Assembly: GCA_048941015.1 (NCBI GenBank)
Contig: JBHLNZ010000001.1
Coordinates: 1-64,000, forward strand
Source of the DNA: Promethearchaeota archaeon
GTDB taxonomy: Archaea; Asgardarchaeota; Lokiarchaeia; Sigyniarchaeales; SOKP01
Length of the DNA stretch: 64,000 nucleotides
Direction: 5' to 3'
Shown: in pieces, positions 41,026 to 51,316 of the stretch
Layout of the letters: each line of letters opens with the position of its first letter
Position numbering within the stretch: position 1 is the stretch's first letter
Translations under genes and position numbers: made by a program
The notes under the pieces: model-generated
Database searches by the model: none
The model's input: the letters and a program-made list of their open reading frames with translations, nothing else
Told to the model about the DNA's origin: nothing

Positions 41026-41706
41026 TTACCAAATAAGTGGAATTAATTTTTTCTTGGTTCTTTGAGCATATTCTTTATATCCCTCAAGTTCTTTATGAAG
41101 CATTCGATCTTCTAAAATTGTGCGTATCACTATTCCAGCAATACCAAGTGCAGCAGGAATTAATGAAAAAAGAGAACCAAGGGCTAAACAATAAAAGATT
41201 ATAAATAGAATAAATCCTAAATACATTGGATGCCGTACAATTCGATAAGGGCCAGAAGTAATTACTGTATGGCCTCGATCTTTTTGAATCTCCACTGCTT
41301 TTGATAAAAAGGTATTTTCTTTCATAACTAAGAATATTATTACCAATCCCAATGACATTCCTATAAATCCAATTATTTCCACTAAAAGAGGAACACTTGA
41401 CCAACCATATTTCTTTTCAAAACCAGGAATTATAAATGTTGGAAAAAAGCCAAATCCCATGAAAAGCATGACAATCTTATCCCACTTTTCTTTAAATTGT
41501 GGTTTAGCCCTCTTTTGAAGCATCTCGGGGTCATGTTTACTAAAATATAAAATATAGCTCGTAAAGAAGGTAAAAAATATTCCAAGATAAATCCATACTT
41601 CAAGCCAAAAAAAACTTCCAAAAGGGATAAATAACCCTAATCCAAGGAAAGCTGTAACTAATACAACAAGACTAATTAAAATCGGTTTAGATATTTTTTT
41701 AGGCAT
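41026..41706 (-). CDS. Isoprenylcysteine carboxyl methyltransferase (ICMT/Ste14/PEMT) family membrane protein
   Basis: VITSGPYRIVRHPMYLG, EDRML..EL.GY.EY, LIP.IW. Confidence 0.88.
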   Translation of the reverse strand: MPKKISKPILISLVVLVTAFLGLGLFIPFGSFFWLEVWIYLGIFFTFFTSYILYFSKHDPEMLQKRAKPQFKEKWDKIVMLFMGFGFFPTFIIPGFEKKYGWSSVPLLVEIIGFIGMSLGLVIIFLVMKENTFLSKAVEIQKDRGHTVITSGPYRIVRHPMYLGFILFIIFYCLALGSLFSLIPAALGIAGIVIRTILEDRMLHKELEGYKEYAQRTKKKLIPLIW

Positions 41707-41750
41707 AAATACAAGAAATTTTTATCTTATTTAATTTTTCTAATCTTTTT

Positions 41751-42791
41751 TTAGATATTTCGTAATCTTGGATCTAGTGCATCCCTTAATCCATCGCCCA
41801 AAAGCATAAATCCAAGAACTGTAATTAATATCATCAATCCCGGCCAGAACACTGCCCAAGGTGCGTCAAATAAACGAGCCATAGAAATCCAAATTTCCTT
41901 TCCCCAATCTATTAACCCTGGATCAGTAAAACCAAGAAATGCTAAGCCTGCTAAGTTTAAAATAACTGATCCAATGTCAAAAGTCACCGAAATTATAATT
42001 GGATTAATAACATTAGGAATTATATGTTTAAACATTATTCTACGGTTGTTAGCACCGACAACTTTAGCTGCTTGTACATATGGCAATTCTTTTGCTTGTA
42101 GGACCGAAGCTCTGATTAATCTTGCATAAGATGGTACTCCTATTATACCAAAAGCGAACATAAAAGCTTCAATTCTTTGTCCTATTATTGCTACAAACAC
42201 TAACGCAAGAATCAAACCTGGAAAGGAAAGAAGTACATCCATTATTCTCATCAAGATCAAATCTAACCAACTACCAAAATATCCTGCCATAGTACCAAGT
42301 AAGATTCCTACTATTACACTAAAACCAACAGCAGGAAATGCTATTACTAATGAAGCCCTTGCCCCATAAATTATTCTTGACAAAACGTCTCTTCCTAAAC
42401 TAGTAGTACCTAATAGATGTTCTGGAGATGGTGGTTCATATGAACCTAAAAACATTCCCATAGTTTGGCTTTCAAAACTATAAGGAGCAATCCATTGGCC
42501 AAAAATCGCAAAGGTAATTACCACAAAGATAATAATTATTCCAACTAAAGTTAAAAATGATTTCAGTCGCCGAATAAATTTCCGCTTACTAATCGTTTTT
42601 TCATATTCAAACTCTCTTTTTGACAATTCTTCTAATCGAGAACCCGGCACAAATAAGAATTTTATGTTTTTAAAAATCCATCGCAAGATAATTATTAATG
42701 TATTCTGCTTTTCCTCTTCCTCTCTCGACTCCTCTGTTTCGATCTCCTTAAATTCAATAGTTTCTTCTAATTCCGTCATTTCTTTAACCAA
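41751..42791 (-). CDS. Oligopeptide ABC permease OppC/DppC (orphan in this window)
   Basis: HLLGTTSLGRDVLSRIIYGAR, YVQAAKVVGA (EAA-loop equivalent), LGDGLRDALDPR. Confidence 0.92.
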   Translation of the reverse strand: MVKEMTELEETIEFKEIETEESREEEEKQNTLIIILRWIFKNIKFLFVPGSRLEELSKREFEYEKTISKRKFIRRLKSFLTLVGIIIIFVVITFAIFGQWIAPYSFESQTMGMFLGSYEPPSPEHLLGTTSLGRDVLSRIIYGARASLVIAFPAVGFSVIVGILLGTMAGYFGSWLDLILMRIMDVLLSFPGLILALVFVAIIGQRIEAFMFAFGIIGVPSYARLIRASVLQAKELPYVQAAKVVGANNRRIMFKHIIPNVINPIIISVTFDIGSVILNLAGLAFLGFTDPGLIDWGKEIWISMARLFDAPWAVFWPGLMILITVLGFMLLGDGLRDALDPRLRNI

Positions 42792-42809
42792 TTATTATAT
42801 CTTTCTTTT

Positions 42810-43472
42810 TTAGAATGTGAAAATCACGTCAAAGGGAAATTTATCAAAATTTTTTTCTAAGGTTCTTTTAAATCCCTCTGAAATTGGCTCAAATCCTTTT
42901 CCAATATAATTTCCAATTGAAATATAATCAGGTTTTATGTCTAAAAGAAAATTCTTTAAACTTTTTAAGTTATCAACATTATCATTAATCCCCCTAAAAA
43001 ACATTATATAAATTCCTAAATGACCTTTGTAAGTCCTCTTGAATCTGACCATCCCGTCTAATAACTCTTCTAAACTTAAATCAACACAACAAGGATTCAC
43101 CCTTCCAAAATTTGAAGGCTCGATACTATTAATATTAACTGCTATGAAATCACATTCTAACAATCCTTTTTGCGCTAATTTATTACATAATATGGAGCAA
43201 TTTACATACGTCCCAATTTTTTGATTTGGGTGAGCTTTCTTAATAAGATTGATTAAAAATTTTAATCCATGGAATATATATTGATCATTTGGAATTCTCA
43301 ACCATATATAGTCAGGACTTCCATTTTGGAATAAAAAATGATTTACTTCTCCAATGATTTCCTCGGTAGGAAAATCTTTTACTGAGATTGACTTCAGCGA
43401 ATCAAAATGAATTGGCATTATTATACCAAATCGCTTGTCATGCTGAATTTCATTAATATATTTATATTCCAT
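42810..43472 (-). CDS. Degenerate radical-SAM-fold protein (COG0731/Tyw1-like) lacking CxxxCxxC
   Basis: PDYI, NCSIL, F.RVNP, YKGHL..MFFRGIND, IKPD patterns match the family; the Cys triad and GEP motifs are absent. Confidence 0.6.
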   Translation of the reverse strand: MEYKYINEIQHDKRFGIIMPIHFDSLKSISVKDFPTEEIIGEVNHFLFQNGSPDYIWLRIPNDQYIFHGLKFLINLIKKAHPNQKIGTYVNCSILCNKLAQKGLLECDFIAVNINSIEPSNFGRVNPCCVDLSLEELLDGMVRFKRTYKGHLGIYIMFFRGINDNVDNLKSLKNFLLDIKPDYISIGNYIGKGFEPISEGFKRTLEKNFDKFPFDVIFTF

Positions 43473-43512
43473 TTACTTTTCCTAAATAAAAATATAATTT
43501 TGTTTAATATCT

Positions 43513-46449
43513 CTAATCCTCGCTTACATCTTTAAAAAGTAGTCTTTCTGAAGGCAATTTCTTAGATTTTATCTTATCTATCCTTTCAAAACATTGTTTT
43601 GCTTTCTCATCATTACCTAGTGCCTGATAAGTTCTTCCCAGCTTTCTATATGTATCAAATACATACCATCCTGTAGGATTTAATTCTAAAGCCGTCTTGA
43701 ATTCTTTGATTGCTTCTTCATATCGCCTAGCCCACATTAAAACTTCTCCATACGTATCGTGATAATTACCAACATCTTGACCAATAGTAACTAACTTTTT
43801 ACCTGTTTCTAATGCTTCCTCTATTCTATTAAGCCTTCCTAAGAAAATTGTTTTATTATTAAGCATATCAAATTCATCGGGGTACTTATCGAGTGCAGTT
43901 TCACAAACTTCCAATCCTAAATCATCCTCACTAATCTCATATGCAATTAAGGATTTAAGTTTAAGAAGAGTTATCTCTTCCTTAGGAAATTCCAATATTA
44001 GTTTATCTAGTAGCATTAAAGATTCATTTGGTTGTTCGGATGAAAAAAGAAGCCAACATTTGTGCCTTTTGTAATCTAGAAGTATAGGTACTAATTCAAT
44101 CGCTTTATCGATCGCTTTTATTGATTCTTCATGCATTCCTATTTGTTCCATTACCATTGATTTTAGGTCATAATATCTCGCTTGATTTAGCTTATTTTGA
44201 TCCAATGATATAGTCATATCAATCTCGGTAAGAAATTTATCTGGTTTTATTTGTGCTTCACTGAAATTGTAGATAAGATCGTAACCATTAACTAAAGCTC
44301 CTGCTAAAGTTGCGATCGGATGATTTGAATGGCGATCTTGAACAGATCTAGCTACTTCTAAGGCTTTATTGAACTTCCCTTGCGTTAAATAAGAATAAAT
44401 TAAGATGAATGATACGGAAGTCTCCAATTTCGGATTCTTATCAAAAAGATTAATAATAATATCTTTTTTTATTATTCTCTTTGCCTCTTTATACCTATGG
44501 ATTATGCTGAGTAAAATTGCTTTTAGAATATAAAACTGTTTATCCTTAGGATTTAATTTGATTATTTTATCTATTAGTTCAAAATCTTCTTCATGAGATA
44601 TAACGCAACATTTCCTATTATACATTATAAAAATAATTTTTGTTTTTAATGCTAAAAGATTCTGTGAATCGCTTTTTAATATATTATCAACAATTTTAAC
44701 TGCTTTTTCATAATCGCCTTTATAAAGCAAGATATATGCTTTTTCGCATAATAATGAGGGATTACTTGCTATTTCCAAGCCTTCATCAATAATATAATCC
44801 GCCTCATCAAATTCTAATAAATAAAACAACGTAATTGATTTCAAAAGATAACCAATATACACTTCAGGATATTTCCTAATAAGTTCTTCTGATAATCTAA
44901 TTGCCTCTATTAAATCAAAAGAATTTGTTGCTACAAGATCTCTTACGATTAAATCTTCTAAATCATTAAACTTCTCTTTATTTTTATTATAAACAGATTT
45001 AATTTTCGATTTTTTACCCTTTAAGAGTAATTCATTTATTTCGTCAAAAATGTCTGCATTTTCATGATTATATAATTTCTTGAATTCAATGGTTGTCAAA
45101 AAATCTGATTTGGTTAATTGCATCACATCTAATGCTTTAAAAATTGAATCATCTATACTATAGTAATATTCATCTTCCATTGATTCTTGTTTTATTATCG
45201 AAGGTTCAAATGATTGAAACTCCTCAAATATATTCTGCCATATAAACCCTTCTCTTTTAGCATCATCTGAAATTAATTTCTTTTCTGTTCCAATTTTATA
45301 AGCGAGATATTTAATATATTCGGGTAAAAATTTTCGCAATGAATCTTTTAATTCATTAACAAAAATATTTTCACATATTTCATTAATAATGTTGTTTAAA
45401 AGGCTAGAAACATTAAATCTTGAACTTATTTCTCTCTCATAACCTGCTAATTTATTTAAGTATGTATATTTTGTAATATAATCATCAATAATTGCTCTTA
45501 ATATACGTTCTAACTTTTCATTTGCTTGAAAATAAAATTCTTTATCAGGAAATACGTCTAATCTGAAAAATTTCACAGGGTACAAATCCTCATCTACTAT
45601 TTTCTCGATAAAGAAATCAAGGGTAGTTTGTTTAATATTATACTTCTTTGCAAACGCCTGAGGAGAAACATACTCTGGATATTGATCTGGATGATTAATT
45701 GAAAGAAATAATAAGATCTTATTGAAATCCTCCTCTTCTTCTAACATATTTTCTACTTTTGAATAACTCATCTTTAGAGTATTGTTTAAAAATCGAAATT
45801 TGATATTATCATCTATAATGTCATATTTATCGTAGAAATCATTTGTATACATGGTTATTTCTTCTATTCGCTTGCTTTCCTCCTCCAAAATTGATTGGCG
45901 ATCTAGATCATAGGTTTTCAGCATCCTAAAGTACTCTACTTTACCAGTAGAAGTTATATAATATTCTTTATTCTCGTTCTTAATGAAACCCTTATCAATC
46001 AAAAAATTTTTACTCTTGGATAATGAGGATTGATTAATACCTAATGGTGGCTCTCGAAAATCGGACCATTTGCAGGATTCATTATTATATAACATCCATA
46101 AAATCCAATGATCATAATTCCTCTTTCTCAAAATTGCTTTTGGAGGATATACTAATTTCGGTCTTCCCAATTCCTCATCATAGGAAATCTCATTAAAATG
46201 GGATCTACCTTCAGTTGTTATCCTATAATGTCCCCTTTTAAATCTATCAATATAATCTTTATTAATTAGATCATTGATATAATTTGAAAGAGTTGATTCA
46301 CTGATCTCTGATTCTTCTGTAAAATCCCGCCATTCGCAATATTCATTATTAGAAAGCATCCAAAGAATTATATATTCATAATTTGGATTTGTTCCAGGAG
46401 GAGATAATATCTCTTTTGGGGGTAAAATTAAATTTTTTGAGCTGCTCAT
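43513..46449 (-). CDS. Tandem winged-helix plus TPR-repeat protein, putative transcription regulator
   Basis: Two repeats NY[ED].[IW]ILWML.NNE.C.W.DF...I..S.LS....LI.K..I...Y.IT..G; C-terminal TPRs (e.g. YHDTYGEVLMWARRYEEAIKEFKTALELNP). Confidence 0.8.
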   Translation of the reverse strand: MSSSKNLILPPKEILSPPGTNPNYEYIILWMLSNNEYCEWRDFTEESEISESTLSNYINDLINKDYIDRFKRGHYRITTEGRSHFNEISYDEELGRPKLVYPPKAILRKRNYDHWILWMLYNNESCKWSDFREPPLGINQSSLSKSKNFLIDKGFIKNENKEYYITSTGKVEYFRMLKTYDLDRQSILEEESKRIEEITMYTNDFYDKYDIIDDNIKFRFLNNTLKMSYSKVENMLEEEEDFNKILLFLSINHPDQYPEYVSPQAFAKKYNIKQTTLDFFIEKIVDEDLYPVKFFRLDVFPDKEFYFQANEKLERILRAIIDDYITKYTYLNKLAGYEREISSRFNVSSLLNNIINEICENIFVNELKDSLRKFLPEYIKYLAYKIGTEKKLISDDAKREGFIWQNIFEEFQSFEPSIIKQESMEDEYYYSIDDSIFKALDVMQLTKSDFLTTIEFKKLYNHENADIFDEINELLLKGKKSKIKSVYNKNKEKFNDLEDLIVRDLVATNSFDLIEAIRLSEELIRKYPEVYIGYLLKSITLFYLLEFDEADYIIDEGLEIASNPSLLCEKAYILLYKGDYEKAVKIVDNILKSDSQNLLALKTKIIFIMYNRKCCVISHEEDFELIDKIIKLNPKDKQFYILKAILLSIIHRYKEAKRIIKKDIIINLFDKNPKLETSVSFILIYSYLTQGKFNKALEVARSVQDRHSNHPIATLAGALVNGYDLIYNFSEAQIKPDKFLTEIDMTISLDQNKLNQARYYDLKSMVMEQIGMHEESIKAIDKAIELVPILLDYKRHKCWLLFSSEQPNESLMLLDKLILEFPKEEITLLKLKSLIAYEISEDDLGLEVCETALDKYPDEFDMLNNKTIFLGRLNRIEEALETGKKLVTIGQDVGNYHDTYGEVLMWARRYEEAIKEFKTALELNPTGWYVFDTYRKLGRTYQALGNDEKAKQCFERIDKIKSKKLPSERLLFKDVSED

Positions 46450-46498
46450 TTTTTAAAATTCCTCTTGTAACTTCATTTAACTCCTATAATAACGTATA

Positions 46499-46582
46499 GT
46501 TCGAAGTTATATTTATACTTTACACTTCGAAATAAAGTATGAACCATTGCCGAAGTTCAAACTTCACTGCGAAGTTCGAAGT
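46499..46582. promoter_or_regulatory. Cluster of (T)CGAAGT/ACTTCG(A) motifs in the divergent promoter, putative operator array
   Basis: cgaagt at 46502, 46551, 46570, 46577; acttcg at 46524; gaagt-N4-acttc palindrome 46552-46565. Confidence 0.55.
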
Positions 46583-46678
46583 ACAAACCTATAAATGAAT
46601 TATTATCCTAATAAAAATTAATAACAAAAAAGAAAAAACGAGAAAGAAACACAAAAAAAAGTTAAGAGGTTATAAAAA

Positions 46679-46918
46679 ATGGCACAAGTAGAATTAAGAA
46701 AAGTTGAGCCAAAAAAATGTGTTGATATAGAATTAATAAAATTAGATGAACTCCCTGTTCCCGAAGTCATAGAAGAAAAGGAAGAGGAGATTATAAAGAA
46801 AAAAGGATTGAAAGGCATTATAAATAAATTTCGTAATCATGCCAAATATCATGAAGAATTCATAAATATTGAAAAAGTTAAACGTCAATTAATTTATAGG
46901 AACTTTGGAGTTAATTAA
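46679..46918 (+). CDS. Small hypothetical protein (79 aa)
   Basis: AGAGGT SD-like motif and A-rich spacer before ATG, the same leader type as two of the downstream sORFs. Confidence 0.7.
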   Translation: MAQVELRKVEPKKCVDIELIKLDELPVPEVIEEKEEEIIKKKGLKGIINKFRNHAKYHEEFINIEKVKRQLIYRNFGVN

Positions 46919-46960
46919 AATTTTTTCAAGTAAGATTATGTTAAAAATTGATGATAAAAA

Positions 46961-47044
46961 ATGAGTTTAAAAGAAAAAATAAAGGTATGGGTTTGTAGAC
47001 ACTTCTGTTCTGCGTCATGCCGAGCGGAAATCTGCGCTGAATGA
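46961..47044 (+). CDS. Cys-rich 27 aa peptide MSLKEKIKVWVCRHFCSASCRAEICAE
   Basis: Translated by hand; tgatga-A-rich leader like that of the rubrerythrin gene; Cx3Cx3Cx4C; locally GC-rich against AT-rich flanks. Confidence 0.6.
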   Translation: MSLKEKIKVWVCRHFCSASCRAEICAE

Positions 47045-47082
47045 AATTATAATTAAAATAAAAAAAAAGAGGTACAAAAAAA

Positions 47083-47148
47083 ATGGCAAGAAAAGAAAGA
47101 TTGATAATAATTAGAAATGATGAGTTTAACTCGAGATATTTTAGATAA
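47083..47148 (+). CDS. 21 aa peptide MARKERLIIIRNDEFNSRYFR
   Basis: AGAGGT SD-like leader; paralogous to the next sORF. Confidence 0.7.
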   Translation: MARKERLIIIRNDEFNSRYFR

Positions 47149-47205
47149 TTAATTTCAAAATATAAAAATATATTCAAAATAAAAATTAAAAAGAGGTAGA
47201 AGGAA

Positions 47206-47274
47206 ATGAACGAGAAAAAAAGAATAATTGTGTTAAAAAACGCGAGCTATAACGTAAAATATTTCAAATGGTAA
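47206..47274 (+). CDS. 22 aa peptide MNEKKRIIVLKNASYNVKYFKW
   Basis: AGAGGT SD-like leader; aligns without gaps to the previous sORF; T-rich terminator-like run at 47286-47298. Confidence 0.7.
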   Translation: MNEKKRIIVLKNASYNVKYFKW

Positions 47275-47308
47275 TCAAATTCACATTTTTTTATTTTTAA
47301 GACGTATT

Positions 47309-47534
47309 AAACAAATCCTCCAATTTGTTTGAAGCTTTCCGTACAATCACTTAATAGGATGATACCCACGCACCTGGGCAGACGAGTGCTCAGGTGCATT
47401 CCATCCATCAACAATTAATGCAACCATAATTTCATAAAATTCTGATCATTTATGACTCCTGCAGCCGTCTTCTTTGTTGGAATAATCATCCCAAATCTGT
47501 TAATAGTCTTAATAGATGGGTTTGGTGGAGTCAT
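47309..47534. ncRNA. Candidate structured non-coding RNA (three hairpins)
   Basis: GC-enriched intergenic block with stems 47309-16/47323-30, 47370-80/47387-97, 47452-59/47527-34 and inner stem 47495-503/47509-17. Confidence 0.5.
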
Positions 47535-47652
47535 CTTTTAAAATAAACATAAATTTTTTAGAGTTGTTTTTTCCTTTTTTCGATTTTTTTTTTAAATATA
47601 TACGATAAAACCAGACTATATTTCCTGAACTATTTATTAAAGGTTAATTAAG

Positions 47653-49095
47653 TTGAATACTTCAGAATTGTATGAGCTTTTTAGGCACACTCAAAAAATA
47701 AGTGAAGATTTTAAAGTCAATTTGAAGAAAAAAAAGACATTTCAAACGCTTTTTTTCCTCTATTTCATGATATATGTTTTTATAGGTATTTTACCTGCGA
47801 ATATTGATAATTTACTTATTACACTTCCTCAAACTACTAAGATGGGTATTGGGATCATAATTACAAGTAGTCTTTTTACAGGTATAATTAGTGTATTAAT
47901 ATTTGGTTATGTTGGTGATAAATTATCCTACAAAGCTTCACGTAAAAAGCTTTTTATTGTTACAAACTTGTTATGGATAATTGGATATGGCCTCTTTTCA
48001 TTATCGTTAAACTATATCTCTTTATTGATTTTAACCGTTATAGCTGCTATAGGCACTGGAGCATTTTTACCTATAGGTTTTTCATTTATAAGTGATTTAT
48101 TTCCTTCAGATAAACGGGGTAGTAAATTCGGGACAATGCAATTTGGAATGATTGTAGGTAATGGTACTGGAATCATTTTTGGAGCAATTTTAGGGACTCT
48201 TTTAAACTTTAATGGTTGGAGACTTGCATATGGAATAAGCTTTTTCCTTGGTGTAATTGCTATTTTAATGTATGTAAGTAAAGCGCAAGCTCCTATTCGT
48301 AAAAGGACAGAACCAGAATTAGCAAATTTTAATGTCGACTATAATTATAAAATTACGTTTGCCTCTATTTTTCAATTATTTCGTATAAAATCAATTATGG
48401 CAATCTTCCTTGCTGTTTTCTGTTCAGGGATAGCGCTATCCACACTTGGAAACTGGGCTATATTCTACTTATCCATAAAAATTTCCAGTTCAAATGCAGA
48501 GGGTTTAGCTACAGTTATTTATCTTTTGGTAGGATTAGGAGCCCTTCCTGGAACGATCATCGGAGGCAAAATGGGAGATTCTTCTTTGCGTCAGGGAAAA
48601 ATTAGAGGGCGAATCGTAATCTCAATAACTGGTCTTATTTCTGGAGTTTCATTAATGATGATTTTTTATATTTTTCCCTTTTTCACATACCATTCTATAT
48701 TCGTATTGATTTTCTGGATTATTTTTATTACTCTGGGTTTTATAGGATATTGCTTTTCTTATTTTTCTATGGGAAATCAATTTGCAATATATTCAGAAGT
48801 GTGTATTCCTGAGCTAAGGAGTACTGCCAATGCCATCAATGGACTAATGTTAAATATCGGAGGGATAATGGGTAACCTCATAATCTCTTCTCTTATTCAA
48901 AGCAATCTCGGTTTATTACCTTTTGCTATATTTTCAGTGTTAGCAATTTGGTTGTTTGGTTCCTTTTTATGGTTTATTGCTTACTCACAATATCCTAAAG
49001 ATGTCCTTAATCGAAGAAATGTTTTATTAGGAAGAAGAGAAGTGTTAAATCAGCAAATAAAGTCCCCTAAGCTTCATGAAGTTCTTAGAGCTTAA
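47653..49095 (+). CDS. MFS transporter (spinster-like)
   Basis: FGYVGDK..SRKKL, SDLFPSDKRG, GWRLAY, PELRSTA; 12 TM helices. Confidence 0.85.
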   Translation: MNTSELYELFRHTQKISEDFKVNLKKKKTFQTLFFLYFMIYVFIGILPANIDNLLITLPQTTKMGIGIIITSSLFTGIISVLIFGYVGDKLSYKASRKKLFIVTNLLWIIGYGLFSLSLNYISLLILTVIAAIGTGAFLPIGFSFISDLFPSDKRGSKFGTMQFGMIVGNGTGIIFGAILGTLLNFNGWRLAYGISFFLGVIAILMYVSKAQAPIRKRTEPELANFNVDYNYKITFASIFQLFRIKSIMAIFLAVFCSGIALSTLGNWAIFYLSIKISSSNAEGLATVIYLLVGLGALPGTIIGGKMGDSSLRQGKIRGRIVISITGLISGVSLMMIFYIFPFFTYHSIFVLIFWIIFITLGFIGYCFSYFSMGNQFAIYSEVCIPELRSTANAINGLMLNIGGIMGNLIISSLIQSNLGLLPFAIFSVLAIWLFGSFLWFIAYSQYPKDVLNRRNVLLGRREVLNQQIKSPKLHEVLRA

Positions 49096-49825: not shown

Positions 49826-51316
49826 TTATGCTTTAAAATCTTTCTCTCTTAATTCTTTTTCAGCATTAATATAGATTTCATTAATTCTTTGTTGGATATT
49901 TTCTATTAATGGCATTGGTTGATGTGTTTCAAGAATATTTAATGTTATATGGATCAAATTTTCTCTGTAATCTTTTTTACCTTTTTTAATCCAAGTTTCT
50001 GGATCATCGCGATTAAAGAATTCTGGACGCCAAAGTTCTTCTCGAAAGTGTTTTAATGTATGTTTTTCTGAAAGAAATTCTCCACCTTGACCAACCTTTC
50101 GAATTATATCAATAGCAAGTTTTTCTCTATTCAATTTAAATCCATTAACAAATCTTTTAATATAACTTATAATTTCATTACACATAATAATAGAAGCCGG
50201 ATTTCCTAGTAATCCTTGTCCTAGGTATCCAATATCGTGAATCAAATTTGCACCATCAAGAGTAGCCAATAATGTTGCTACACCATGTTCAAACGCTGCT
50301 TGTTGATCAAGTGAAAATGAATCAGAGCCTACTGTAGACCACATAGGAAGATTATAATAGTGAAATAGATCAGCAAAAGCAGAATTAGCAATTCGAAATT
50401 CAGGAGCACCGTATAAAAAAGTCGATAATCTCATATCTAGTGGTACCAGAGCAAAACCAGAAATAATAGGAGCACCCTTTTTCTTAAGTTGATGTAAAAC
50501 AATACCACTTAAAGCTTCAGCATTTGCTTGAGCAATTCCTCCTGCTAAAGTTACTACTGCAGTTGCTCCCATAATATCTCCTGGAGTGTAACAAATTGGT
50601 ATACCTTTTTCAGCACAAAGAAAAAGTTTCCTAATAGCTCCATATGAATGCGATAGGGGTGCGGTTGGTTCAGAGTAATGTATAATAAAGGGCTTATATT
50701 TAAGTTGCTCTGCCCCACCAGCGATTAATTCTGCCATTTCAATAATAAATGCAAGGTCTTCTCTCCCAGCTGCAGTAAAGAAAATTGGTTTGACTGAGTT
50801 TTCCATCATAGCTTTCACACAATTGATATACATTAAATTAGTTGGAACATCAGAAGGTAATGCAAATGATGCAATGAAGTCAATATTTTGACAAAAATCA
50901 GCAATTCGAGCCGCATTTTTTACATCTTGTAATACAGATAATCTGATTTGACCTGTTTTTAAATCCTGAGTACGTATTAAGTCAGTTCCCAACCCAAAAT
51001 AATTATTGTGATTTTCTAACCTCATTGCTTCCTGTCCCTCTCTATTGTAAATAGTAATACGGGAAGGAGCACTGTGAATACTTTCTTCGACTAACCAATT
51101 TGGGATGTGTACGATATCATCATCCTCAATTGTACAACCCGCTTTTTCTAAGAGTTTTACACCTTCTTTAAGAGATACACGAACTCCAATATTTTCTAAG
51201 ATCTCCAAACTTGCTAGATGGATTTTTTTAATTTGTTTTTCTGATAAAAACCTATAATGTGGTCTACAATTTTTTTCAATTGAATCTACCATTTTATTTT
51301 TACCCTCAATTTTCAT
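49826..51316 (-). CDS. Trimethylamine methyltransferase (MttB superfamily), non-pyrrolysine
   Basis: IHLASLEILENIGV, TLAGGIAQANAE, GANLIHDIG, FLSEKHT; no amber codon. Confidence 0.9.
   Translation of the reverse strand: MKIEGKNKMVDSIEKNCRPHYRFLSEKQIKKIHLASLEILENIGVRVSLKEGVKLLEKAGCTIEDDDIVHIPNWLVEESIHSAPSRITIYNREGQEAMRLENHNNYFGLGTDLIRTQDLKTGQIRLSVLQDVKNAARIADFCQNIDFIASFALPSDVPTNLMYINCVKAMMENSVKPIFFTAAGREDLAFIIEMAELIAGGAEQLKYKPFIIHYSEPTAPLSHSYGAIRKLFLCAEKGIPICYTPGDIMGATAVVTLAGGIAQANAEALSGIVLHQLKKKGAPIISGFALVPLDMRLSTFLYGAPEFRIANSAFADLFHYYNLPMWSTVGSDSFSLDQQAAFEHGVATLLATLDGANLIHDIGYLGQGLLGNPASIIMCNEIISYIKRFVNGFKLNREKLAIDIIRKVGQGGEFLSEKHTLKHFREELWRPEFFNRDDPETWIKKGKKDYRENLIHITLNILETHQPMPLIENIQQRINEIYINAEKELREKDFKA

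Follow-up and report, generated by a model that had tools for sequence, protein, structure and literature searches.

A regulator/micro-peptide module of an Asgard archaeon is described here. It lies in a window of 64,000 nucleotides (nt), namely positions 1-64000 of contig C50 in the organism's own genome (labelled G000), a metagenome-assembled genome (MAG) of 3.59 Mb with ~29% GC. The gene of a putative transcription factor of 978 amino acids (aa), called REG in this study, is divergent from an operon encoding a 79 aa protein (p79) and three micro-peptides of 27, 21, and 22 aa, which are the products of small open reading frames (sORFs) 2 to 4. Downstream of REG is the gene of p220, a 220 aa protein with the fold of radical S-adenosylmethionine (SAM) enzymes. 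It is firmly supported that this is a lineage-restricted module, composed of a regulator with multiple winged helix-turn-helix (wHTH) domains and tetratricopeptide repeats (TPRs), an operon that encodes a small protein together with varying numbers of micro-peptides, a dedicated operator array, and a radical-SAM or pseudo-radical-SAM accessory protein. In the reading favoured here, with a probability of roughly 45%, the module is self-contained and lineage-specific, and the tails of the peptides or of p79 are ligands of the REG TPR domain, which would close a feedback loop. Peptide sensing by the module is plausible but unproven.

The open reading frame (ORF) list exactly reproduces the gene arrangement described in the first-pass annotation, both the four minus-strand genes with gaps of 40, 18, and 44 nt from REG outward and the coordinates and lengths of the four plus-strand sORFs of 79, 27, 21, and 22 aa. 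An AAGAGGT sequence is found ~8 nt before the ATG of the 79, 21, and 22 aa ORFs alike. Is this arrangement common among the relatives of REG? I inspected the 1.3-1.7 kb upstream of 48 REG genes, reading away from the gene, in related MAGs of one Asgard family. At the 42 loci whose REG has at least 780 aa, a p79-like ORF is present in 31 cases, and at least one sORF of 17-32 aa preceded by a Shine-Dalgarno (SD) site is present in 27, so that adjacent divergent sORFs do accompany homologous regulators at most of these loci. At the six loci with a REG of ~640 aa, no sORF was found, and p79 was found only at locus L020, whose REG is cut by the contig end. Long TPR regions accompany p79 and the peptides, while the short-TPR paralogs have neither. 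The same layout is seen at most of the ~850 and ~990 aa REG homologs in several genera of the family; usually an ORF of 70-95 aa is divergent from REG, and often it is followed by one to three sORFs of 21-29 aa with strong SD sites.

The REG family, which has size classes of ~640, ~850, and ~990 aa, is present in 56 of 68 genomes of one Asgard family and in only one of 232 genomes elsewhere in the phylum. Within the genus, 22 of the 24 other genomes have REG homologs. There are up to 14 matches per genome, a number which is not a gene count because certain genes gave two matches each. When 1.84 billion representative proteins were searched exhaustively, only 196 representative REG clusters were found.

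A paralogous module lies on the same contig outside the window (C50:77186-80396, or L006 7187-10397, with the REG gene at ~77.2-79.7 kb). Its REG has 831 aa and is 54% identical to the window REG over the N-terminal 410 residues, the overall range being ~41-54%. It has a divergent p79-like ORF of 91 aa ending in YRNFGTY, one sORF of 22 aa (L006 10178-10246) which is homologous to both sORF3 and sORF4, a copy of the two-hairpin element that follows the peptide genes in the window, and, downstream of REG, a protein with an HELFH motif. The regulator and the small-ORF array had been proposed to form a unit, and their joint conservation here and at most ~850 and ~990 aa homologs bears this out. 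The peptide-plus-hairpin segment is ~80% identical in nucleotides between the two G000 modules. Since this is far above the similarity of their REGs, the alignment suggests that the sub-cassette was copied or gene-converted between the two modules.

The space between the two divergent genes is occupied by an array of CGAAGT/ACTTCG hexamers. Five of them are found at 46502-46582, between the REG ATG (46449) and a CTATAAAT box (46589-46596), arranged as AGTTCGAAGT twice, ACTTCGAA, and GAAGTTCAAACTTC. The promoter had been described as motif-rich, and the five hexamers indeed form the only cluster of at least three per 120 nt in the 3.59 Mb genome, where the background is 0.144 hexamers per kb. 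Palindromes resembling GAAGTTCGAAGTTCG(T)TCGAACTTC occupy the same position in orthologous loci, and one to four such hexamers were found within the first 260 nt at 17 of 20 further loci from other genera. The strict half-site GAAGTTC/GAACTTC gave no cluster in the genome. Because the N-terminal half of REG is its conserved part, I infer from these sequences that REG binds the hexamer array and autoregulates the divergent pair.

Pfam and NCBIfam searches revealed winged-helix families twice in tandem in REG (HTH_45, HTH_34, MarR, and Sso10a-like), with HTH_45/HTH_34/MarR at residues 25-90 followed by the second wHTH, and many TPR matches at residues 550-960. The resulting layout is two N-terminal winged-helix domains at ~20-180, a highly conserved middle region at 180-430, and a TPR superhelix of ~550 residues at 430-978. 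In the AlphaFold2 (AF2) model, with a mean predicted local distance difference test (pLDDT) score of 74, the two winged helices are confident, each with a helix-helix-helix arrangement and beta-hairpin wings, and the TPR superhelix has ~30 helices. The middle region is possibly a further wHTH; the ESM Atlas gave only weak wHTH-like leads for it. In alignment A3, residues 1-400 contain the bulk of the invariant positions, and the TPR part varies. This looks like the pattern expected of a DNA-binding module joined to a specificity domain. No HTH_3/XRE match and no ATPase domain were found in REG by Pfam and NCBIfam. The best Foldseek matches of the TPR region in the PDB are generic long TPR proteins (OGT, SPY, APC/C subunits, CTR9, TTC7B, and Tom70).

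The p79 family consists of proteins of 70-95 aa with an MAQ/MVQ start, a basic helix, and an [FY]-R-N-x-G tail with an aromatic end (alignment A5). A profile made from this alignment has 27 matches at E <1e-3 in 41 genomes, and 20 of the 27 are directly divergent from a REG homolog. No Pfam, NCBIfam, or usable ESM Atlas family was found for p79, and a search of p79 and the peptides against NCBIfam and Pfam gave no family, only one spurious sub-threshold QueF match. An 81 aa p79-like protein with the tail ..YYGNYGYF occurs beside another ORF of ~79 aa at L058-L061 (G008:C8, G015:C99, G012:C35, and G014:C31); the pair is flanked by genes for enoyl-CoA hydratase and 3-hydroxyacyl-CoA dehydrogenase, and this context, with no REG near, is kept in the four genomes.

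Are the short ORFs translated sequences or chance ORFs in AT-rich DNA? In 28 upstream regions, SD-preceded sORFs of 17-32 aa number 28 on the divergent strand against a single one on the other strand; the last residue is F, Y, or W in 21 of the 28. Within the peptide groups, the last 14 codons differ at positions 1, 2, and 3 in 112, 117, and 194 cases, and 90 synonymous codon replacements were counted across the groups (e.g., GCG/GCA, GGA/GGG/GGC, CCT/CCA/CCG, and TAT/TAC). The sORFs are therefore coding, by the synonymous changes and the third-position excess, and the strand bias together with the codon evidence speaks against chance ORFs. The general pattern of the peptides is a basic N-terminus, a short hydrophobic strand, [KR/Q/H]-N, a G/S/P-aromatic turn, and an aromatic C-terminus. 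A strict peptide motif search had returned only three copies, all in the own genome, and the motif was relaxed for the other genomes. sORF3 and sORF4 belong to one family, whose members have a basic N-terminal part, contain I-I-I-[KR]-N and x-x-[FY]-N, and carry Y-F close to the C-terminus. sORF3 is identical in L054 and 20 of its 21 residues are identical in L051, while sORF4 has homologs in the paralogous module, L051, and L054. At the eight type-B loci (L038-L043, L045, and L046; genus g1), three peptide groups occur in a fixed order, each conserved across species, with the C-terminal parts ..FNPxNLxxRF, ..IIIKNAGYxPxRLxF, and ..ILNPTGYNxxTLRF. The tail of p79, with [FY]-R-N-x-G and the aromatic end, resembles the peptide motif. 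The annotators' caveat that the peptides have no obvious signal sequence holds, in that neither a signal peptide nor a membrane segment was found in 28 peptides, the longest hydrophobic run being five residues.

sORF2 is different from the other two. Its motif W-x-C-x3-C-x3-C-x4-C-x-E is kept in L051, L054, and L009, where Cys, Ser, Arg, Phe, and Ala codons have changed synonymously; the differences at positions 1, 2, and 3 number 38, 29, and 52. An RNA structure was rejected as an explanation of this conservation; predicted RNA folds are not conserved. sORF2 was found only in the window's subclade and in G019. The product may bind metal, may be a sactipeptide-like precursor, or may be linked to the radical SAM homolog lacking the Cys loop.

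A p220-type gene directly follows REG in seven of 16 loci compared (18 REG genes) and in 14 of 20 loci of a second set, so a radical-SAM-like gene as a neighbour of the regulator is a recurrent trait. p220 itself has no Pfam match and no match to PF04055 at E up to 0.01. Its AF2 model (pLDDT 89.8) nevertheless has the partial TIM-barrel of the radical SAM fold; Foldseek gave the pyruvate formate-lyase (PFL)-activating enzyme 3c8f with a TMq of 0.69, followed by LipA, SuiB, NifB, and RlmN, at a probability of 1.00. As shown by alignment A2, an 18-residue deletion removes the CxxxCxxC motif of p220. The paralogs of L037, L049, and L050 have the 18-residue insert with C-x3-C-x2-C together with GFGEPTL and match PF04055 at 61-68 bits; in the columns of the GEP motif, G-F-G-E-P-T-L of the intact paralogs is replaced by R-I-P-N-D-Q in the window clade. 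Since the fold is kept and both the CxxxCxxC loop and the GEP motif are lost, the alignment and the model identify p220 as a radical-SAM-derived pseudoenzyme. The members of this clade remain intact ORFs at 67-98% identity. The protein had been called Cys-less, which is right for the CxxxCxxC loop and wrong for the protein as a whole, as other cysteines are present. The intact relatives follow REGs of ~850 aa and are single-domain proteins of ~238 aa in an uncharacterised UPF0026/COG0731-like group. No RRE, SPASM, or twitch domain was found in them, the NCBIfam matches being weak and below the cut-off, and a PDB sequence search with an intact paralog gave no match to any solved structure.

p220 can be compared with several known proteins. 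The PFL-activating enzyme is the best overall structural match and has a similar size (~240 aa); it and other small radical SAM activases act on a protein or peptide substrate. However, the identity is only 12-16%, and p220 lacks the cluster-binding cysteines. The radical-SAM systems for ribosomally synthesised and post-translationally modified peptides (RiPPs), such as those of streptide (Str/Sui), PQQ (PqqA/PqqE), and mycofactocin (MftA/MftC), resemble the module in having short precursor-like peptides with conserved aromatic residues beside a radical SAM gene and transporters, and SuiB is among the structural matches of p220. They differ in that the enzyme here is a single domain of ~238 aa without RRE or SPASM, that its Fe-S and SAM motifs are lost in the window, where no competent maturase was found, and that many modules have no such enzyme.

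In the favoured reading, REG would be a transcription factor whose winged-helix domains bind the GAAGTTC/CGAAGT-type operator array between the two divergent promoters, and it would control its own gene as well as the operon for the 79 aa protein and the 27, 21, and 22 aa micro-peptides. p79 and the short peptides appear to share a tail consisting of a short hydrophobic strand, [KR]-N, a G/S-aromatic turn, and an aromatic C-terminus, and these tails would be the probable ligands of the long, variable TPR superhelix. If so, the operon products would feed back on their own regulator, which amounts to peptide sensing. The radical-SAM-derived protein downstream of REG may be a conserved accessory, predicted from its motifs to be catalytically competent in the ~850 aa modules and non-catalytic in the window, and the neighbouring transporters of the major facilitator superfamily (MFS) may export the peptides.

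Several observations weigh against this reading. The middle region of REG is highly conserved and yet poorly modelled. Five p79-like genes (the 81 aa subfamily) sit in a beta-oxidation context without REG. About one third of the long-REG loci have p79 without a recognisable short peptide, so the short peptides are not obligatory. In close orthologs, sORF3 is 100/95% and p79 90/84% identical, while the REG TPR region is 72/67% identical; the peptides and p79 are thus more conserved than the TPR region, unlike the co-diversification of receptor-pheromone pairs. Finally, the module counts are not independent, because the compared genomes are related MAGs.

What other kinds of system could the module be? 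The first-pass annotation likened it to RRNPP quorum sensing, with peptides that are secreted, reimported by Opp, and recognised in the cytoplasm by the TPR domain of the regulator. RRNPP systems are the receptor-peptide pairs of Firmicutes and phages (Rgg/SHP, PlcR/PapR, NprR/NprX, and AimR/AimP). Their receptors have an N-terminal XRE-type HTH or a Rap-type three-helix bundle and ~5-9 TPR-like repeats. Their peptides are secreted by a signal peptide or PptAB-type export and then reimported by Opp, and the mature peptide binds the TPR groove. Streptococcal pairs of this type control radical-SAM peptide clusters. The architecture does resemble these systems: a DNA-binding N-terminal domain is joined to C-terminal TPR-type repeats, and the regulator is divergent from adjacent peptide genes of 21-29 aa (~20-30 codons in general) with basic N-termini and conserved C-terminal parts, in a size range near the SHP/ComS pro-peptides. 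The family is expanded to many paralogous modules per genome, which recalls the Rap/Rgg/Aim expansions, and transporters are recurrent neighbours. However, REG has at least two winged helices instead of an XRE HTH, its TPR region of ~550 residues is of the OGT/APC/CTR9 type and not the ~250-300-residue domain of RRNPP receptors, and no kinship in sequence or fold was detected. No RRNPP receptor is among the listed Foldseek PDB matches of the TPR region, although remote kinship is possible. Because those matches are generic long TPR proteins, the likeness is an architectural analogy and not a family membership; the analogy in architecture and adjacent peptide genes stands, while homology and the link to Opp do not. 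The most constant partner here, in an Asgard host, is the protein of 70-95 aa, which as p79 is charged and cytoplasmic-looking; the peptides have no export signal and do not diversify faster than the receptor; and Opp is outside the conserved module, the OppC gene of the window being a recently inserted orphan that is absent from nearly all modules. Quorum sensing with Opp reimport is very improbable. A convergent peptide-based cell-cell communication in this Asgard family, with leaderless peptides of 21-29 aa, MFS export, a multi-wHTH/TPR receptor, and a private-channel repertoire drawn from the up to 14 matches per genome, is also quite improbable. The large bacterial regulators of the MalT/LAL and SARP/AfsR types, many of which act as cluster-situated regulators, likewise combine DNA binding with a long TPR sensor in one protein, but they have a STAND/NB-ARC ATPase and DNA-binding domains of the LuxR or OmpR/BTAD type, and REG has no detected ATPase domain.

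The peptides, perhaps with the p79 tail, might instead be precursors: the small radical-SAM enzyme would modify them, a neighbouring peptidase would trim them, and MFS transporters would export them. REG would then be only the pathway-specific regulator, and the maturase would have decayed in the window's clade. Such a RiPP-like locus would account for the intact radical SAM proteins (PF04055, CxxxCxxC) directly after REG in the ~850 aa modules with ...IIVIHNPAYIVY-type peptides, for the presence at one locus of multiple precursor-like paralogs in which aromatic, Asn, and Gly positions are conserved, and for the recurrent MFS neighbours, the conserved-HELFH-motif protein beside six modules, the alpha/beta-hydrolase and S9/S33-like genes adjoining type-B modules, and the B12-radical SAM gene beside the L036 and L044 modules. 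On the other hand, the candidate maturase has become a pseudoenzyme in the window as in most ~990 aa modules, and eight type-B modules that still keep three conserved peptides do not have it at all; most modules with retained peptides thus have a decayed enzyme or none. Where intact, it is of the single-domain UPF0026/COG0731 type of ~238 aa without RRE, SPASM, or twitch; the peptides match no NCBIfam precursor family; and a variable N-terminal 'leader' with a conserved C-terminal part is the reverse of most RiPP precursor families. I consider this reading rather unlikely. REG might also respond to a different signal, for instance a small molecule or some other protein, via its TPR or middle region. 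The p79/peptide operon would then be a mere output with an unrelated role, for example in the modulation of the adjacent transporters or of another protein complex. The p79-like genes without REG beside beta-oxidation genes, the modules without short peptides (one third), the peptides being more conserved than the TPR region, and the membrane/transporter genes that follow the operon on the same strand in the window, L054, and the paralog all agree with such a role. Yet the pairing of the long-TPR REG with p79 and the peptides is tight and recurs in different genera, while short-TPR paralogs have neither partner beside them, and the tail motif common to p79 and the peptides suggests a shared binding partner encoded in the module. 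An output-only operon is unlikely, and feedback of the peptide or p79 tails on REG is retained as the favoured reading.

The features of the window are listed in Table 1.

Table 1. Positions and supporting evidence of the module and its neighbours in the window
Feature	Position	Strand	Evidence
REG, putative transcription factor, 978 aa	43513..46449	-	Pfam domains, AF2 model, alignment A3
p220, putative radical-SAM-fold pseudoenzyme, 220 aa	42810..43472	-	AF2 model, Foldseek, alignment A2
Orphan OppC-type ABC permease, 346 aa	41751..42791	-	BPD_transp_1 (104 bits) and OppC_N
ICMT/PEMT-family membrane methyltransferase, 226 aa	41026..41706	-	PF04140, PF04191
CGAAGT/ACTTCG operator-like array	46497..46587	.	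Repeats D1, D2, and I1-I9
p79, first gene of the divergent operon, 79 aa	46679..46918	+	Alignment A5
sORF2, Cys-rich micro-protein, 27 aa	46961..47044	+	Conservation and codon changes in L051, L054, and L009
sORF3, peptide, 21 aa	47083..47148	+	AGAGGT SD site 8 nt upstream; member of the peptide family
sORF4, peptide ending Y-F-K-W, 22 aa	47206..47274	+	AGAGGT SD site; same peptide family as sORF3
Two-hairpin element after a T7-A-T5 run, clade-specific	47296..47425	+	Identity to the copies of the paralog, L054, and L051
Two tandem MFS_3 transporters, 420 and 429 aa	37568..40164	-	PF05977

The two-hairpin element shares 97% identity with that of L054, 88% with that of L051, and 82% with the copy in the paralogous module. 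Its consensus fold comprises 26 pairs, none of them marked by a compensatory change, and an invariant G-U pair favours the plus strand. A scan of 46300-47800 against Rfam at E up to 1 gave only chance-level matches, and the covariance model R1 found nothing past its four training sequences in 59 sources and 31 genus genomes, with only the two G000 copies in those genomes. Of the structured RNA candidate proposed at this site, a conserved hairpin region thus remains, without compensatory changes or an Rfam family, and by its distribution in the sequences it belongs to this clade's version of the module and is not a general part of it. Past the hairpins, a relatively GC-rich stretch contains a minus-strand ORF of 39 aa (47415-47534), which is identical in L054 and L055 and annotated there by the gene caller. 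It is not conserved in L051 and is probably not a gene.

Other neighbours of REG vary in their linkage to the module. The OppC of the window is 72% identical to its counterpart in an Opp operon at G000:C119:59-67 kb. Besides this OppC homolog, the operon contains an SBP_bac_5 (OppA-type) gene and a pair of oligo_HPY (OppD/F-type) ATPase genes; OppB was not located as a separate gene. In the window, the OppC-like permease is the sole representative of the Opp set. OppC lies beside REG only where p220 is 80% identical (L056 and L057); it is absent from L054, whose p220 is 75% identical and is directly followed by the ICMT gene, from L051 (71%), and from every other module. Since only the nearest relatives have it and a 72% identical copy exists in the C119 operon, the window OppC is a recent orphan duplicate, and it was rejected as a functional part of the module. 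The ICMT/PEMT protein matches PF04140 at 34.5 bits (cut-off 24), PF04191 at 33.3 bits (cut-off 25), and the NCBIfam model isopcys_mtase at 57 bits, which is below the cut-off of 160. Its gene follows p220 in L054-L057 but not in L051 or the wider family. Both proteins had been put forward as components of the system, with the reservation that they might be chance neighbours; the reservation was justified, as neither belongs to the conserved module and the ICMT gene is linked to p220 only in the closest orthologs.

The MFS transporters are a different case. MFS_3 homologs adjoin REG or p220 in L037, L047, L049, L050, L054, L062, L073, L075, L077, and L078, and MFS_3 lies beside at least 11 type-A modules, while the genome has only four MFS_3 copies. 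A different MFS transporter is found beside all eight type-B modules. The MFS_3 transporters are candidate exporters of the peptides. A protein with an invariant HELFH motif occurs beside six modules, including the paralogous module.

In the type-B modules, the gene after REG encodes a protein that combines a gelsolin repeat with SAP/HeH domains, past which come an MFS transporter and one to four tandem alpha/beta hydrolases (S33/S9-like); a GNAT-domain protein and several proteins without an assigned family lie past the peptide array. The gelsolin and SAP/HeH neighbours agree with an Asgard origin, as do the names Promethearchaeota and Thorarchaeota attached to identical or nearly identical public proteins. 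Just past p79 at L036 (13869-15329) and L044 (6388-7842), there are a B12-binding radical SAM gene (HpnJ/ApyD-like, sub-threshold) and a TrmB-like protein of 654 aa. These two modules have p79 and no recognisable short peptides. Elsewhere in the window, an MttB-superfamily methyltransferase is encoded at 49826-51316 on the minus strand by an uninterrupted ORF of 496 aa, and tblastn found five more copies in the genome. Because the ORF has no in-frame stop, the protein is a non-pyrrolysine member. A tRNA scan of the window found none.

The archaeal quorum-sensing surveys in the searched literature deal with small-molecule systems only and contain no ribosomal peptide signals or peptide-sensing regulators. 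The module was not found described in the literature on archaeal RRNPP, Asgard RiPP/radical SAM, archaeal peptide quorum sensing, or UPF0026, so it is a regulator/micro-peptide module of a kind undescribed in the searched literature. It offers a candidate with a defined operator, a regulator family which is restricted to one Asgard family and expanded there, and a micro-peptide family mostly missed by gene callers. In addition, a radical SAM enzyme is seen turning into a conserved pseudoenzyme within a single gene family. If the peptides are RiPP-like products or intracellular co-regulators, they would still constitute a new archaeal micro-protein family with a dedicated regulator. Asgard archaea, to which eukaryotes are more closely related than to any other prokaryotes, live in syntrophic consortia, in which signalling would matter, and the module could be a peptide-sensing circuit of a kind not previously described in archaea.

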